Assembly (NCBI GenBank): GCA_963820545.1
Contig: CAWGAJ010000001.1
Coordinates: 266,396-330,395, forward strand
Reading direction: 5' to 3'
DNA from: Pirellulales bacterium
Lineage (GTDB): Bacteria > Planctomycetota > Planctomycetia > Pirellulales > Thermoguttaceae
DNA length: 64,000 bases
Position 1 is the stretch's first letter, and the number at the start of each line of letters is the position of its first letter. The notes under the pieces were generated by a model. That model worked only from the letters and a program-made list of their open reading frames with translations. It was not told the origin of the DNA and ran no database searches. A program made the position numbers and the translations under genes. Shown piece after piece: positions 659 to 33,768 of the stretch.

Positions 659-1138
659 GTGATCAAGCCCGTTCTCCAAGCCCTGGTTTTGGCCGATAAC
701 GTATATCAGGATAAGTCTACCGGGAAAATGATAATTGCCGGAACATTCAAGCAATTATTGTTTTCAAAATCTCATGAACATCCTGCCGAAAAACCTCCCG
801 CCTCTGAAATATCGGCTGAAGGACAGCGCAGGCTGACGTGGCAGGAGGTTTGCCGATCCGGCTCGCCGCACGCTTATATTAGTCTAACGGGCGTGCATGG
901 TTCAGTACCGCTGGAACTGCGTTACCTAGACTTATCTGATAATAAAGTATTATTGGCCACACAATTCACTGTCAATTGCCTGAACCCGTTGGAGACCATG
1001 GAATTTTCTTTAGTAATGCCGCCTCTGCCGATCCCCCACGCGGGAGTTTATTCCCTTGAACTTATCTCTAATAATGAACTCTTGGGATCGCTGCGAATAA
1101 ACGCCGTCGATATTTCAGCATCTGAAAAGCAGGGCTAA
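659..1138 (+). CDS. hypothetical protein
   Basis: 159-aa ORF (GTG start), co-directional and close to 266..637; stop abuts a large hairpin element. Confidence 0.4.
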   Translation: MIKPVLQALVLADNVYQDKSTGKMIIAGTFKQLLFSKSHEHPAEKPPASEISAEGQRRLTWQEVCRSGSPHAYISLTGVHGSVPLELRYLDLSDNKVLLATQFTVNCLNPLETMEFSLVMPPLPIPHAGVYSLELISNNELLGSLRINAVDISASEKQG

Positions 1139-1140
1139 GC

Positions 1141-1310
1141 CGCATTTCTCACGGTAGGGTGGGACGAGGTCGCACAAGTTATTGGTGGGTCTGCGCAAAC
1201 TGATTAATATGAAATTTTCAGCCTGTAGGATGGCGAGCACTGAATCCGCGACCGAAGTCCCACCAAGAAAACTATTTGCTTGACCCACCCTACACGTTGG
1301 TGAGAAATGC
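1141..1310 (-). ncRNA. candidate structured RNA / repeat element, copy 1 (core about 1154..1271; homologous to 33531..33649 on the opposite strand)
   Basis: about 85% identity to the second copy with a compensatory base-pair swap in a palindromic hairpin; terminal helix GGTGGGAC..GTCCCACC; extra 12-bp inverted repeat CGCATTTCTCAC/GTGAGAAATGCG at the ends; the overlapping ORF 1115..1366 is judged spurious. Confidence 0.35.
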
Positions 1311-1336
1311 GGATTAAGAAATCTCTTTAATTGCAG

Positions 1337-1409
1337 TGGACAGGGCCGGGATTGAACCGGCGACACCTGGATTTTCAGTCCAGTGCTCTACCAACTGAGC
1401 TACCTGTCC
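1337..1409 (-). tRNA. tRNA-Phe (anticodon GAA)
   Basis: reverse complement reads GGACAGG-TA-GCTC..GAGC-A-CTGGA-CTGAAAA-TCCAG-GTGTC-GCCGG-TTCAATC-CCGGC-CCTGTCC-A, a canonical cloverleaf; CCA is not encoded. Confidence 0.9.
1370..1409. repeat. attL-like 40-bp direct repeat (5' half of tRNA-Phe) bounding the integrated island
   Basis: identical 40-mer GATTTTCAGTCCAGTGCTCTACCAACTGAGCTACCTGTCC recurs at 14281..14320. Confidence 0.8.
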
Positions 1410-1537
1410 ATAAATCTATAACTTCTTATTCTACAATCCGTTATAATCGGACCACTTTTTGTTTTTTAGGGATAAATATCCCTAAAACATTGGATTTATC
1501 CCTAAAGTCATGGTAAGATAGATAATAGAGGTGAAAT

Positions 1538-2620
1538 ATGAGAAAGCCTTATTATAAAAAACAATTACATGCGTGGTATTACAACCGTCCGGGTGATAAC
1601 CGACCGATCCGCTTGTATTCGGAACCCACAAAAACGGCGGAAGGTGAAAAACTTGCATGGGCTGAGTATGGTAAAAAAACAGGTGATTGTCAACCTGTTA
1701 CACTCGGCAACGATCCTACGTTTGCATTCATTGGGCATGAATACCTGGAAGCATTGCGGACGGGTGTAGGCCGAAAATCGGGCCGACCGGCAGCCGACAG
1801 TACAATCTATGCCAATGAGCGGGCTGTAAATGGCTTCTATGCGTTTATCGGCGAGAAAACAAAGGTGTCTGAGATTACGGGCTTACACGTCGATAAATGG
1901 CTTGCCAAAGAAGAGAAAAAATGGAAGGAAAATAAAAAGCAAAACAAAAAGGGCAAGGATTACACGCCAACACAAAGACACAATTTAGCCCGTGACCTAG
2001 TAACTTGTTTCCGGTGGGCACGTAAGAAGGGTTTGATACGTGTAAACCCAATTGATGGGTACGAAAAAGATACGCCCAACAAACGCGATAAGGCACTAGA
2101 TAGCAAACAGTGGCAAACGATCCTTGATAGTGTTGACGGCTGTTTCAAAGACGTGCTTATTGCATTATATGAAACTGGTTGCCGTCCGCAAGAGTTGCGT
2201 ATTATTGAAAATACAAACTTTGATCGGGGCGGTAAACGGTGGATAATTCCAAAAGAAAAGGCAAAAGGAAAAAAGAAAGATCGTATCATTGCCTTGACGC
2301 CTAGCATTGTGGAAATTTGTGAGCGATTAGCGGCTAAATACCCGGTCGGGTCAATCTTCCGCAACAGTAAAAATCGCTCCTGGACACACAACGCCCTTGA
2401 CCTGCGTTTCACCCACTTGTCAGAGAAGGTAGGATTCAAAGTGATCCCTTATATGATCCGCCACACGTTTGCAAGTCGGGGCAAAGCCAATGGTATGGAT
2501 TCATCGTCTGTTGCTACGTTAATGGGAAACTCGCCTGCAATGGTTGACGGTACTTATGCACACCCTGAACAGATTGATCCGAATTATTTACAAGGGCTAT
2601 TGCAACAGGTGACACAATGA
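1538..2620 (+). CDS. int: tyrosine recombinase / phage integrase
   Basis: 360 aa; C-terminal catalytic region IRHTFASRGKANGMD...GTYAH carries R..H..R..Y-type residues; sits directly beside the tRNA-Phe att site. Confidence 0.85.
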   Translation: MRKPYYKKQLHAWYYNRPGDNRPIRLYSEPTKTAEGEKLAWAEYGKKTGDCQPVTLGNDPTFAFIGHEYLEALRTGVGRKSGRPAADSTIYANERAVNGFYAFIGEKTKVSEITGLHVDKWLAKEEKKWKENKKQNKKGKDYTPTQRHNLARDLVTCFRWARKKGLIRVNPIDGYEKDTPNKRDKALDSKQWQTILDSVDGCFKDVLIALYETGCRPQELRIIENTNFDRGGKRWIIPKEKAKGKKKDRIIALTPSIVEICERLAAKYPVGSIFRNSKNRSWTHNALDLRFTHLSEKVGFKVIPYMIRHTFASRGKANGMDSSSVATLMGNSPAMVDGTYAHPEQIDPNYLQGLLQQVTQ

Positions 2621-2883: not shown

Positions 2884-3900
2884 ATGTTACGCAAAGTCTT
2901 TCTTCTTTTCTTTTTGCTGGTAACTCCTATATCGGCCCGAACCTGGACCGATTCGACTGGTAAATTTTCTACTGACGCCACACTTGCCGATTGTCAAGGC
3001 GGTATTGCATACCTCCAAAAAGTCGATGGAAAAATTGTGGCGGTCTCGGTCACTAAACTAAGTAAGGCCGATCAAGATTTTCTTAAAACTACTCTTCCAT
3101 CGGTCAGTATAATTTCGGGAAAGGTGGTCGGGGTAACGGACGGGGACACCATAACCGTTTTGGACGATACGAAAACTCAATATAAAATCCGTTTGGAAGG
3201 AATTGACGCCCCGGAAAGTGGTCAAGCCTACGGCACACAAGCGAAACAAGCATTAAGTGACAAAGTTTTTGACAAAGATGTAAAAATTGAATGGCGGAAA
3301 AAAGACCAGTATCAAAGAACATTAGGACACATTTTTGTTGATAATCATTGGATCAACAAAGAAATGATCGAAGAGGGGTGGGCTTGGCATTACAAAGAAT
3401 TTTCAAAATCGGCTGTACTTGCTGACGCCGAGAAGCAAGCCCGAAACAATCAAGCAGGACTTTGGAAGGATTCAAACCCGATTGAACCGTGGGTATTTCG
3501 TAATCCGGCCTTAGCCGAATCCGATCCTTTTGAAACTAAAACCACTACACTTAAAACTAAAACCACTGAACCGCAAACAGCCGATGAAAAAGAGCAAATA
3601 GTTTACGTTACCAAAACAGGGAGCAAATATCATAGTGCCGGTTGCCGTTATCTTGCAAAAAGTAGTATCCCCATGCCTCTAAGTGAAGCGGTAAAACGGT
3701 ACTCACCTTGTAGTGTCTGTAATCCTCCAAGACCGAAAGAAACAAAAACATCAAGTGAAACTCTTGTCACACCTCCCACCGCAAAAGAATCCTATACGCC
3801 TCCACCTGATACCTCAAGTGATAGGGTTCAAGTCAAGGGCTACTATCGCAAGGATGGAACCTACGTTAGACCCCATACCCGTAGTAAACCTAGTAAATGA
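2884..3900 (+). CDS. secreted thermonuclease (staphylococcal-nuclease-like) with N-terminal SHD1-like domain
   Basis: signal peptide; GDTITV..RLEGIDAPE SNase active-site motif; N-terminal WTDSTGKFST motif shared with the C-terminus of the 28279..29199 protein; C-terminal Cys motif YVTKTGSKYHSAGCRY...CSVC. Confidence 0.7.
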   Translation: MLRKVFLLFFLLVTPISARTWTDSTGKFSTDATLADCQGGIAYLQKVDGKIVAVSVTKLSKADQDFLKTTLPSVSIISGKVVGVTDGDTITVLDDTKTQYKIRLEGIDAPESGQAYGTQAKQALSDKVFDKDVKIEWRKKDQYQRTLGHIFVDNHWINKEMIEEGWAWHYKEFSKSAVLADAEKQARNNQAGLWKDSNPIEPWVFRNPALAESDPFETKTTTLKTKTTEPQTADEKEQIVYVTKTGSKYHSAGCRYLAKSSIPMPLSEAVKRYSPCSVCNPPRPKETKTSSETLVTPPTAKESYTPPPDTSSDRVQVKGYYRKDGTYVRPHTRSKPSK

Positions 3901-4181
3901 TTTTTCCAAGCAGCCATAGTATCAAACGTAAAAACCAATTAGGTTTTGCATACTGGGTATCAAGATATTTTTGTGCTTGCTGTTTGTATTCGTTATAGTT
4001 CATTAAAATTATTTAGTTGGTTTGGGCGGTTCTTCTTTACTTTTCTCTTTGCGTTGATCCTCTTCCTCTTTGCGGTCAATGTCATAATTGTATCTTTTTT
4101 CGAGACTGTAGTTGTATCTTTTATCAAGACTGTAATCGTATTTCGGATCAATATCCATTATTTTCCTTTCCATAAAAAATT

Positions 4182-7808: not shown

Positions 7809-8494
7809 CCACCACCGCAGCCGTTGTCAATTACGTCTGATAAAATTTGTAGTCCCATGCAAGCATAAATCAGACAGTGAAATAGGTGGTCATTCATTCC
7901 CTCTATCATTCTGGCATTAAGAATCTGAGTCTTTAGTGTTGATTGTCCGATTAACGATTGTGGGATACGCAACTGTCCGCCTTTTATTTTCAGGTTGCAA
8001 AATTGAATCCAGTTTGATCTATTTGCCCGGAATTCATCACCCTTTTCGATTAGGTCCAGTCCGGGGGCACTTGCACTATATAGAACTCCGTTTGCAAATT
8101 TTCCATACGCCGTTTCACCGATTTTGTCTAATTCCTGTTTGATATAGACTGATTGATAGCCTAAATCCATTACACATTTATTAACTTGAAAAAGTTTTGC
8201 AGCATCAAACGTCTGTTCAAAAATAGACTCGATTGGAAAACTACGCCAATGAATTACATGCCCGACCGTTTGGCTACAATTGCGGGGGATTTTTTGCCAT
8301 TCAACTACCACAAGATATGTCGGTTGCCCACCATCAAGCCCGATAGTTCTAGGAACATCATCCGTATACGGCAATTTTATTTCATAGGGTACAGTTATTT
8401 TTTCCAAGTCCCCAGGGCTGGGGCGGGATGGATCGGGTTGATATGGCATTCCCAAAATCGAATTCCAAAATACTTTTTTTGCTACTTCGCTCAT
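7778..8494 (-). CDS. terminase large subunit, nuclease-domain ORF (GpA-like C-terminal part)
   Basis: follows the ATPase ORF with an ATGA overlap; position and size fit a terminase nuclease domain; no strong motif read directly. Confidence 0.45.
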   Translation of the reverse strand: MSEVAKKVFWNSILGMPYQPDPSRPSPGDLEKITVPYEIKLPYTDDVPRTIGLDGGQPTYLVVVEWQKIPRNCSQTVGHVIHWRSFPIESIFEQTFDAAKLFQVNKCVMDLGYQSVYIKQELDKIGETAYGKFANGVLYSASAPGLDLIEKGDEFRANRSNWIQFCNLKIKGGQLRIPQSLIGQSTLKTQILNARMIEGMNDHLFHCLIYACMGLQILSDVIDNGCGGGCRPITKRII

Positions 8495-14321: not shown

Positions 14322-14400
14322 TAACTCGTAAGACGACTTTTAAAGTCGTCCTACAGTAACCGTAAATCGTAAGACGACTTTTAAAGTCGTCCTACAGTAA
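14322..14400. repeat. two tandem copies of a 39-bp unit containing a hairpin
   Basis: CGTAAGACGACTTTTAAAGTCGTCCTACAGTAA occurs twice; each holds a GACGACTTT/AAAGTCGTC stem. Confidence 0.6.
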
Positions 14401-14580
14401 TATATAATCGCCAATCGGGAAACGCTCATAATAAAGGTAAGGCGAAAGCTTGTCAATTGGGGCATAACTCCATGCACGGCAACGCATTACTGCCGAAATA
14501 AAACGCCCGCCCAACACCCTTTCTATAAGCGTCATTTTTGTGCCAACCTCCGCAGCGGATGCAGGGGATTGCATTCTTTA

Positions 14581-14776
14581 GGCCTGGAGGGCCGAAGTAG
14601 TGTAGCCAGGGACGCAAGTCCCTGGGGAGAGTTTATAACCTACTGAAAAGCCCCGGAGGGGCGGCGTACATGAATCGTTTTCGGCATCCTATGTCGCCCT
14701 TTCAGGGCTGCATCCGAAGAATCAATACGTTCCGGTGGCTTACGCCACCGGCTACACAATATCGGCCCTCCGGGCC
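14581..14776. ncRNA. candidate GC-rich structured RNA (unclassified; strand unknown)
   Basis: 5' arm GGCCTGGAGGGCCGAAGTAGTGTAGCC (14581..14607) pairs with 3' arm GGCTACACAATATCGGCCCTCCGGGCC (14750..14776); internal hairpins CAGGGAC..GTCCCTG and CCGGTGGC..GCCACCGG; about 58% GC in a 40% GC context. Confidence 0.35.
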
Positions 14777-14995
14777 TAACGCAATTTTCCCCACACAACC
14801 CAACGTAAAAGGCTAGAGCAGTGCTCAGGATGATGTAGCGTCCGTTTAGCCCGGTCGCTTGCGACCGGTGAATTTTCCCCGGGAATATGCTCCGCTACAC
14901 CATGTTGAACAGCGTTCTAAATAGTTACAAACAGTATATGCCCACCCCGATGAAAACTATATGCAACAAGCATTGCAACAGGTGGTAGGCGATCT

Positions 14996-26551: not shown

Positions 26552-26566
26552 AGTGTCACAGCAATT

Positions 26567-26587
26567 GTCAGGCACGGGGTGCCTGAC
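26567..26587. repeat. REP palindrome (right), inverted relative to 25933..25953
   Basis: GTCAGGCACGGGGTGCCTGAC. Confidence 0.7.
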
Positions 26588-27115
26588 CTAGACTAGACTT
26601 GCGGTTGGCGTCGCTCATGATGTTGCCTTCCCCTTGTCAGGACAAGGTCGGCACGCCGAAGGAATGATTTCGGAGCTCAATGGCTGGCCTGCGTGTGCCC
26701 CTGTCAACGCTTCACCCGCGGCGTTACCGTCACCGGCGCATGACTCGAGGTCAAGATGGTTCGCTATTCCTTTCTTGTGCGGCTCTTTCATCCGCTACTC
26801 CATGCCGGTTTTGACCGGCGCTTTCCCTGACACCGCTTTACCCTTTTGAGACGTGTGTGTTTTTCAGTTCCTCCTTGTTTTACGCACTAAACGTATGACT
26901 AGTTCGACAAGTCCACTCCGTTCTAAAAATTCCGAATGTTCTCGTTGATTCAAGAACTTCGGTTTTTAGTGTATGTTTTTGGCATCAGAAAGGTGGTTCC
27001 CGGCAACTACAATGGGGAAACACCCAACCGGAAGCGGCCTCAATAAGAATTGTGGTCTAGGTTTGCATAGACGCGAGCAGGTTGGCGTCAGTAGTACTTA
27101 ACGAGGAGACGGAAA

Positions 27116-33085: not shown

Positions 33086-33362
33086 TTTTCCGGTCAAATA
33101 ATTTTAAAGCCGACATCAAAATAAATTAATTCGCGCGGATGCCACGGGCTGCTTGCCAGCCCGTGCCGACGAAGGAAAATCGAACAAGCGATGCACTGGC
33201 CGACAAGACAGGAGCCAACGGGCATCATGCGTAGCATGGTCGGCATGGTCGGTTGAACACCGATAGTTGGTCGTGCCACCCTTCGTCGGCTTTTAATCCC
33301 CAATCCCTTATCTAAAAAACCAGCCCCGCCGCAACTCTTTGCTACAGCGGGGCTTTGCAGTG

Positions 33363-33437
33363 TCGGGGCGACAAGATTCGAACTTGCGACCTTCTGAACC
33401 CCATTCAGACGCGCTAGCCAGACTGCGCCACGCCCCG
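33363..33437 (-). tRNA. tRNA-Pro (anticodon GGG)
   Basis: reverse complement reads CGGGGCG-TG-GCGC..GCGC-G-TCTGA-ATGGGGT-TCAGA-AGGTC-GCAAG-TTCGAAT-CTTGT-CGCCCCG-A. Confidence 0.85.
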
Positions 33438-33484
33438 AATTGGGTATGGGCTCATTATATCCCGTGACCACAAGTATGACAAAT

Positions 33485-33510
33485 CAAGGCCGATTTTGCA
33501 ACGGCCTTTT
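33485..33510 (+). terminator. rho-independent-terminator-like hairpin
   Basis: GGCCG-ATTTTGCAA-CGGCC followed by TTTTT. Confidence 0.35.
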
Positions 33511-33530
33511 TATGGAGACTGTAGACTCTA

Positions 33531-33649
33531 CTTTTCTTGGTGGGACTTCGGTCGCGGATTATATGCTCGCCATCGTACAGGCTGTAAATTACATATTTAT
33601 CAGTTTGCGTGGATCCACCAACAACTTGCGCGACCTTGTCCCACCCTAC
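33531..33649 (+). ncRNA. candidate structured RNA / repeat element, copy 2 (homologue of 1154..1271 on the opposite strand)
   Basis: TTTTCTTGGTGGGACTTCGGTCGC...GCGACCTTGTCCCACCCTAC; about 85% identity to copy 1 with a compensatory swap (TGAAAATTTCA versus TGTAAATTACA). Confidence 0.35.
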
Positions 33650-33768
33650 TATGAGATATAGGCTGTAGGAGGGAGACTGGAGGGCGGAGGCCGGAGGTAG
33701 TAGACTGAACACTGTTAAATGTAAAGTGATTACTCCACTGAACTACTTTAACCGCAGAAACTTAGATT

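Follow-up and report, generated by a model that had tools for sequence, protein, structure and literature searches.

A structured element of about 120 nt occurs twice in a stretch of 64,000 nucleotides of a Pirellulales genome (the whole stretch analysed, hereafter the window), each time beside a tRNA gene, and the question is what kind of element it is and what its neighbours say about it. A preliminary description had left three candidates, a small-RNA family (for example 6S-like), a tRNA-linked regulatory RNA and a structured mobile repeat. Altogether, the evidence described below indicates that the element is very probably a MITE, a non-coding transposon relic scattered through many Planctomycete genomes.

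Two copies in the window and their relatives

Both copies are located where they had first been noticed, and their high similarity, initially put at about 85%, comes to ~89% over the core by pairwise alignment (13 differences in ~116 nt). A covariance model based on 103 members of the family and run with filters off identifies only these two loci in the 64-kb window, the core of copy 1 at 1154..1293 on the minus strand (124 bits) and copy 2 at 33510..33649 on the plus strand (72.6 bits), and neither this model nor nhmmer detects any further copy there. Likewise, a 22-mer from the 5′ side of the element (GGTGGGACTTCGGTCGCGGATT) and a 20-mer from its 3′ side (GCGACCTYGTCCCACCCTAC) each have exactly two occurrences in the window, where shuffles lead one to expect 0.00.

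Copy 1 is a complete element of 175 bp (1139..1313), terminal inverted repeats included, and it is larger than the core initially recognized, to which it adds these repeats, the 4-bp flanks and an upstream GTAGGGTGGGTCAAGCAAA segment. Its plus strand reads CTAA (1135..1138), GCCGCATTTCTCAC, the interior, GTGAGAAATGCGGA and TTAA (1314..1317). The two tetranucleotides are the left and right target-site duplications, as judged from the sequence and from the family-wide 4-bp statistics given below, the right one having three of its four bases as in CTAA. In the orientation of the element, which lies on the minus strand, the 5′ terminal arm (TCCGCATTTCTCAC) occupies 1300..1313 and the 3′ arm 1139..1152, both of the repeat type named A below and complementary at 13 of 14 bases. 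A conserved linker, CAACGT (1294..1299), stands between the 5′ arm and the conserved 140-nt core of the long class (1154..1293), which is composed of the segments a (1279..1293), X (1272..1278), c (1253..1265), Y (1246..1252), a variable insert (1204..1245), X′ (1196..1203), c′ (1183..1195), Y′ (1169..1174) and a′ (1154..1168), all on the minus strand.

Copy 2 (~33487..33663, plus strand, as delimited by its covariance-model match and by alignments) is a decayed element. Its core is intact from segment c to a′ (33538..33649), and segments a and X have been replaced or deleted, the rearrangement of the 5′ arm having removed the 5′ halves of two helices. It is also devoid of the upstream GTAGGGTGGGTCAAGCAAA segment, and its ends are degenerate, with terminal-repeat remnants at ~33487..33502 and 33651..33663 and no matching 4-bp flanks.

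An exact scan of species-representative genomes with the 19-mer GGTGGGACTTCGGTCGCGG retrieved 20 loci. Reading of the extracted sequences showed 15 of them to be genuine, without exception from Planctomycetota MAGs (Planctomycetaceae, Planctomycetia, Thermoguttaceae and unclassified Planctomycetota), and the remaining five to be fortuitous, four of these in other phyla. Several dispersed copies can be present in one genome, the same scan giving six loci in one MAG and four in another. The sequences of these relatives revealed that the element extends upstream of the core first described, into a segment GTAGGGTGGGNCNAGCAAAC, and an independent 20-mer pattern from this segment matched at least 120 stretches in metagenomes. 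Over the genome and metagenome scans, more than 120 further copies were obtained; there were no matches to the metagenome-scan pattern in viral contigs and none to the element in plasmids. Furthermore, no description of this family was found in Rfam or in the full-text literature, queried with sequence strings and for Planctomycete MITEs or REPINs.

From this material 107 distinct cores were extracted, 103 of which could be aligned (alignment A2). They are 97-160 nt long and form size classes of ~100, 120, 129 and 136-142 nt, not multiples of 3, which differ through an insert in one linker (L2, see below); the window copies belong to the 140-nt class. Internally deleted copies also occur, at L099 2626..2654 (29 nt), L042 6528..6605 (78 nt) and L054 3169..3282 (114 nt), which have a GGTGGG or CCCACC box joined to another, the kind of product that slippage or recombination among repeated boxes would leave. 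In turn, a symmetric core variant of 160 nt (L083 1946..2105) carries GTAGGGTGGGNCNAGCAAAC at both ends and matches the pattern on both strands.

Ends, target sites and genomic surroundings

A comparison of 45 bases of flanking sequence to either side of all cores showed that most cores sit inside outer inverted repeats of several types, which define at least four frames (A, B, C and D). Type A is arranged as CCCGCATTTCTCACC(AACNT)-core-GGTGAGAAATGCGGG and type B as CCCGGATTATTCAT(GAACNT)-core-GTGAATAATCCGGG, the repeat of the latter being also written CCCGGATTATTCA; type C is a 30-40-bp repeat, CTAAATAGCCTTTCGTGATTCTGGGAGG, and type D is TAGTTTCTGTTGCGG. The type A repeat of copy 1 also surrounds the core in L017, L020, L053, L060, L079 and L084. 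A/B-type repeats are found on both sides of the core in 32 copies, and inverted matches of at least 9 nt between the flanks in 27 of 100 copies, vs. 4% in shuffled pairs. Some copies have no recognizable terminal repeat, and a few present direct repeats of 10-17 bp instead (direct flank matches of at least 9 nt in 7 of 100 copies, 0.6% being expected). This is exemplified by L009 2604..2704, L117 262..400 and L026 2156..2292, where A/B repeats are absent and direct repeats of 11-17 bp (TGTCTCTTTCGTGAAAA, CGCTGCTTTCGCGGAG, GCTTGCACCGC) are present.

The four bases immediately outside the A/B repeats are identical on both sides in 15 of the 32 copies and carry a single mismatch in eight more, i.e., 23 of 32 differ at one position at most. 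Among these 64 flanks, the tetranucleotides CTAG (11), CTAA (11), TTAA (7) and TTAG (6) account for 35, which corresponds to a YTAR bias. Since matched pairs that are neither palindromic nor of the TA kind exist as well (CTGG/CTGG, AAGA/AAGA and CTTG/CTTG, also ATAG), the four bases are a true 4-bp duplication and not part of the repeat.

The core is better conserved than the terminal repeats, and the GTAGGGTGGG core is also found inside unrelated repeat frames, as the A/B repeats in turn enclose other cores. Ends and core are modular, and the pattern of conservation is the reverse of that of the usual MITE; this suggests that the core has a life of its own. Different palindromic cores flanked by A/B repeats and YTAR tetranucleotides were observed at L003 1043..1175, L040 8540..8625, L045 ~2250..2350 and L019 ~3364. 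They consist of GTGCCACTGCT...AGCAGTGGCAC hairpins in a REPIN-like arrangement, and these elements are a sister MITE family with common ends.

No transposase gene for these ends, and no autonomous insertion sequence bounded by the same terminal repeats, came to light in the window, in 0.87 Mb of related loci or in plasmids; a terminal-repeat scan of the loci yielded only other MITEs with different cores. A tblastn search with the ISEcp1 transposase retrieved no IS1380-like transposase from the 0.93 Mb of window and loci, and no tyrosine transposase (RAYT) ORF was seen between paired copies or in any locus examined. As far as translations read by eye allow, what lies between paired copies is a restriction-modification-like protein and a PEP-CTERM protein. 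In L033, two copies in inverted orientation, at 3903..4042 (plus strand) and 7825..7964 (minus strand), bracket an ORF of 1031 aa that looks like a restriction-modification enzyme (N6-adenine methyltransferase/endonuclease), an arrangement that resembles a composite transposon.

Regarding the tRNA genes, ARAGORN places them as the preliminary description had them, tRNA-Phe at 1336..1409 and tRNA-Pro at 33362..33437, both on the minus strand. Nevertheless, among 75 other copies none lies within 100 nt of a tRNA gene and only one within 500 nt, so a recurrent association was rejected, and the proposal of a tRNA-linked regulatory RNA is not supported. The best explanation for the two tRNA neighbours in the window combines the YTAR preference, in DNA that is rich in GC, with the tolerance of non-coding flanks to insertion. 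YTAR, which contains TAA or TAG, is rare in these GC-rich genomes, and insertions therefore often hit stop codons or AT-richer stretches of non-coding DNA, among them the flanks of tRNA genes.

On the other side of copy 1, a DUF6941 gene (659..1138; ORF list and Pfam) ends with a TAA stop codon (1136..1138) that lies inside the left duplication. In about 9 of 32 copies, copy 1 included, the element sits precisely at the stop codon of a long ORF; the enrichment is weak (10 of 44 in frame vs. 14 of 88 in control frames). The best homologues of the DUF6941 gene are found in Thermoguttaceae (76-79% identity), which, together with the DUF1559 gene mentioned below, assigns the window to a Planctomycete of this group. 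Because the homologues of relatives (66-79% identity) do not have the element downstream, it is not a conserved 3′ feature of this gene; downstream synteny differs, no exact record of the flanking proteins was retrieved, and no orthologous empty site was recovered among the DUF6941 homologue loci compared. Moreover, no conserved gene neighbourhood exists around the copies.

Other features of the window can be mentioned here. A gene for a tyrosine recombinase of the Phage_integrase family (1538..2620, plus strand) lies on the 5′ side of tRNA-Phe, with an AT-rich palindrome (~1466..1505) between them and an SNase-domain gene (2884..3900) downstream; the region 1336..2620 may be the edge of an integrated island, unrelated to the MITE. 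A DUF1559 prepilin-like gene is also recognized by Pfam. The window includes a group II intron, as deduced from a strong Rfam match to domains D1-D4 at 26563..26788 on the minus strand (RF02005, 123 bits). Finally, two matches to the Acido-Lenti-1 RNA, at 14580..14625 (minus strand) and 14732..14777 (plus strand), score 43 and 48 bits for a gathering score of 37. They are inverted and ~110 nt apart, and two short palindromes just upstream (also 14328..14395) are weak hits of the element's covariance model; this pair may be another repeat or mobile-element feature.

An interlocked core

In the alignment of 103 sequences, the order of the core is a X L1 c Y L2 X′ c′ L3 Y′ a′, L1 to L3 being linkers. 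In the consensus, a is GTAGGGTGGGNCNAG, X is CAAACCGG, c is (T)GGTGGGNCTTCG and Y is GTCGCGG, every segment being accompanied by its reverse complement, and the core opens with GTAG and closes with CTAC. Helices a-a′ and c-c′ nest, and X-X′ and Y-Y′ each cross c-c′ and one another. No spacer exists at the junctions a>X, c>Y, X′>c′ and Y′>a′, so that the strands are connected as in a perfect four-way junction, but in permuted order. The simultaneous formation of such a junction was rejected by reasoning, the linkers of 4-6 nt in the short class being judged too short for all three inner helices to coexist.

Pairs were counted on this named structure, crossing helices being given separate bracket types. 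In this frame 91% of the cells are paired, vs. ~40% when the partners are slid by 1-3 columns; double changes occur at 15 pairs, and the observed covariation score was reached by none of 500 shuffles. All four helices have at least one clearly covarying position: AU 43 and UA 35 at columns 11-159 (a-a′); GC 61, GU 12, AU 8 and CG 5 at columns 22-119 (X-X′); GC 33, AU 25, CG 20 and UA 5 at columns 40-132 (c-c′); and, in Y-Y′, GC 91 and CG 7 at columns 47-154 and GC 97 and AU 4 at columns 50-151.

The two GGTGGGNC boxes and the two GNCCCACC boxes contain a variable base, by which the nested pairing (a with a′, c with c′) can be told apart from a swapped one (a with c′, c with a′). The nested scheme alone fits 45 copies, the swapped scheme alone 5, and both are compatible with 28; the two window copies belong to the swapped-pairing minority. 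Hence the mixed fate of the terminal helix proposed at the outset. The helix GGTGGGAC-TTC-GGTCGCG / CGCGACC-TY-GTCCCACC is present in both window copies, for which the proposal holds, but it is not the main pairing of the family: its GGTCGC/GCGACC part, i.e., Y-Y′, covaries family-wide, and the GGTGGGAC box mostly pairs with the inner CCCACC box. Similarly, the symmetric double change TGAAAATTTCA / TGTAAATTACA, taken at first as a compensatory swap and a sign of selection, does exist between the window copies. It carries no weight as evidence of selection, since it involves two sequences only and falls in the variable central insert, where no conserved hairpin was found (for 25 long-class members, RNAalifold predicts a-a′ and c-c′ only).

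Folding adds a further perspective. Fragments of 146 nt reproduce the helix initially proposed (GGTGGGAC..GGTCGCG with CGCGACC..GTCCCACC) as their centroid fold, with a stability that is not better than that of shuffles for copy 1 (z = -0.9) and is better for copy 2 (z = -3.4). The whole of copy 1 folds as one long hairpin made of the terminal repeat, a-a′ and c-c′, which exceeds shuffles both as DNA (z = -6.3) and as RNA (z = -5.9, -69 kcal/mol); no U-tract follows it in the sequence. In a single strand, either of DNA or RNA, X-X′ and Y-Y′ are possible only as alternative hairpins.

A functional RNA acting from one strand would tolerate G-U but not A-C mismatches. In the helices of the family (43 pairs, 103 sequences) both are equally frequent, 99 G-U vs. 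100 A-C, which leaves selection on a one-strand RNA unsupported and points to a palindrome at the DNA level or to both strands counting equally. Besides, reverse-complementing the core leaves its architecture unchanged except that X and Y trade places, and the covariance model gives copy 1 48.5 bits on the opposite strand. Rfam presents no match at the element, either at the gathering score over the whole window or at E<=10 over 1000..1500; together with the mismatch counts, this speaks against a small-RNA family of the 6S-like kind.

The ORFs reported to overlap both copies do exist, at 1115..1366 (minus strand), 33440..33661 (plus strand) and 33455..33712 (minus strand), and both strands offer open frames of 70-85 codons. 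Copy 2 is open in three frames, the same frames being interrupted in copy 1 by stop codons, as read by eye. A coding role was rejected on account of these stops, of family lengths that are not multiples of 3 and of the lack of any Pfam match for the overlapping ORFs.

The covariation of the four interlocked repeats may be due to selection that favours alternative hairpins in single-stranded DNA or RNA, to quasi-palindromes being corrected from a template, or to the two together.

A probable MITE, its alternatives and its counterparts

The MITE reading, which we favour with good confidence, is based on the conjunction of terminal inverted repeats, a duplication of fixed length, small size, absence of coding content, and dispersed as well as decayed copies; the third of the initial candidates, a structured mobile repeat, is the one borne out. 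Copy 1, with its 175 bp and no Pfam match, has the size (<~500 bp) and non-coding character of a MITE, as the 4-bp duplication and the multiple dispersed copies per genome are also typical of one. A transposase encoded elsewhere would bind the terminal repeats, cut a YTAR site with a 4-bp stagger and insert the element, and repair of the gaps would then yield the 4-bp duplication; such a preference would account for the positions seen here. The core would be selected for its ability to fold back, which might join the two ends for transposition or, alternatively, give a harmless stable 3′-UTR hairpin in either orientation, and part of the covariation may instead stem from templated correction of quasi-palindromes. 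Against the MITE reading it must be considered that the 4-bp flanks match perfectly in only about half of the cases, that no autonomous partner was found in the searched loci and no empty site among the homologue loci compared, and that a core occurring in at least four end frames is better conserved than its ends.

Among the alternatives, a strand-specific small RNA, 6S-like or tRNA-linked, with a structure kept by selection on RNA, would be in line with the compensatory changes in the helices, with folds of fragment and full element that are better than shuffles (apart from the copy 1 fragment alone, z = -0.9) and with the tRNA genes adjoining both window copies. It is nonetheless highly improbable: the equality of G-U and A-C, the same architecture and the 48.5-bit score on the other strand, the missing Rfam family, the lack of a tRNA gene within 100 nt of any of the 75 other copies, the variable gene neighbourhood and the loss of two helix halves in copy 2 all oppose it, and terminal repeats with 4-bp duplications are marks of DNA insertion. 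Copying of GTAG-tagged palindromes by a RAYT (an HUH tyrosine transposase) through single-stranded DNA, as in REP/REPIN elements, is also very unlikely, albeit less so. To our knowledge, outer terminal repeats and target duplications, both present here, are not a feature of such copying; moreover, no simple hairpin of 20-40 nt lies beside GTAG, which is followed by two direct GGTGGGNC boxes whose complementary boxes are both in the 3′ half, i.e., the order is h h h′ h′ and not the h h′ h h′ of a REPIN. The GTAG start and CTAC end, and a covariation without strand bias that fits selection on single-stranded DNA hairpins, favour this option, as does the occurrence in Rhodopirellula baltica of GTAG-tagged REP families and many tyrosine transposase genes (PMC3733652), although its GTAG-20/21 families differ in sequence and no tyrosine transposase ORF stands between paired copies.

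The remaining alternatives concern the core. In replication, template switching in quasi-palindromes transfers a change in one arm to its partner, and the compensatory changes could be a mutational by-product of this process, with no selected structure behind them. Covariation in four mutually exclusive inverted repeats at once and the lack of preference for G-U over A-C agree with this explanation, which we consider possible but doubtful; it leaves unaccounted for both the near-invariance of the core across different terminal-repeat frames and the origin of the interlocked arrangement. Somewhat less probable, and compatible with a MITE, is that the core constitutes a functional or independently spreading module that rides in several unrelated MITE frames, where it might serve as a binding site for a structure-specific protein or as a hairpin that stabilizes or terminates mRNAs in either orientation. 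Its conservation beyond that of the repeats, its presence in at least four frames while A/B repeats carry other cores, the covariation of all four helices, the copies placed exactly on stop codons and the very stable RNA fold (-69 kcal/mol) would be understood in this way. On the contrary, the stop-codon enrichment is weak and explained by the YTAR preference alone, no U-tract follows the hairpin, and decayed and internally deleted copies are common. Going one step further, the core would be a self-standing nucleic-acid device, selected as such and carried into several unrelated terminal-repeat frames, which we regard as unlikely. It would then have to adopt a pseudoknotted fold of an unusual kind or alternate between three hairpins that exclude one another, and the selecting agent could be a structure-specific protein, transposition of a folded single strand or an orientation-independent RNA 3′-end element.

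Considered as a MITE, the element belongs to an apparently undescribed, phylum-wide family of Planctomycetota that is ordinary in kind, with a core that is unusually conserved and topologically odd. For annotation purposes, the repeat and its relatives, more than 120 in number, are to be treated as a mobile element and masked, and not recorded as a small RNA, a small ORF or a tRNA-associated regulator. As YTAR targeting puts insertions on stop codons, these elements become part of many 3′ UTRs. The wider interest resides in the core, which is conserved beyond the ends, common to different end types and built of interlocked covarying repeats; if its conservation reflects a function, it would be an unusual natural structure.

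Regarding known systems, two insertion-sequence groups deserve comparison. The IS5 group is characterized by a 4-bp YTAR target duplication, according to the general description in ISfinder, and the bias to CTAG, CTAA, TTAA and TTAG in 35 of 64 flanks is shared with this group and its MITE derivatives; however, IS5 ends are GA/GG and those of the present element start with CC(C)G, and neither the window nor the related loci yielded an IS5-type transposase with such ends. In the IS1380 family, in turn, ends begin with CC and duplications are of 4-5 bp, though we know of no YTAR preference there. The left repeat of ISEcp1 (CCTAGATTCTACGT), verified upstream of an annotated ISEcp1 transposase, has CCnnGATT in common with the type B repeat CCCGGATTATTCAT and coincides with it at 9 of 14 bases, vs. 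only 6 of 14 for the type A repeat. Both resemblances may be taken as leads and not as assignments, the repeat comparison covering the ISEcp1 left repeat and no Planctomycete insertion sequence.

REP/REPIN elements, which are associated with RAYT transposases, are GTAG-tagged palindromes (PMC3733652, PMC3116915). The present family is similar in its GTAG start and CTAC end, in complementary boxes that allow alternative pairings, in its high copy number and in its intergenic location; it differs in the h h h′ h′ order with two extra interleaved pairs, in the outer repeats and target duplication, and in that no RAYT was found.

The closest counterparts in general design are the Correia/NEMIS elements of Neisseria and the ERIC/IRU elements of enterobacteria, which are likewise non-coding, 100-180 bp long and bounded by terminal inverted repeats with a short target duplication, and which fold as a long imperfect hairpin and exist in dozens or more intergenic copies, often co-transcribed with their neighbours. 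Unlike them, and with no relation in sequence, the element described here has a 4-bp, YTAR-biased duplication and not TA, an interior better conserved than its ends, repeats that are interlocked and not simply nested, and Planctomycetota as its host phylum.
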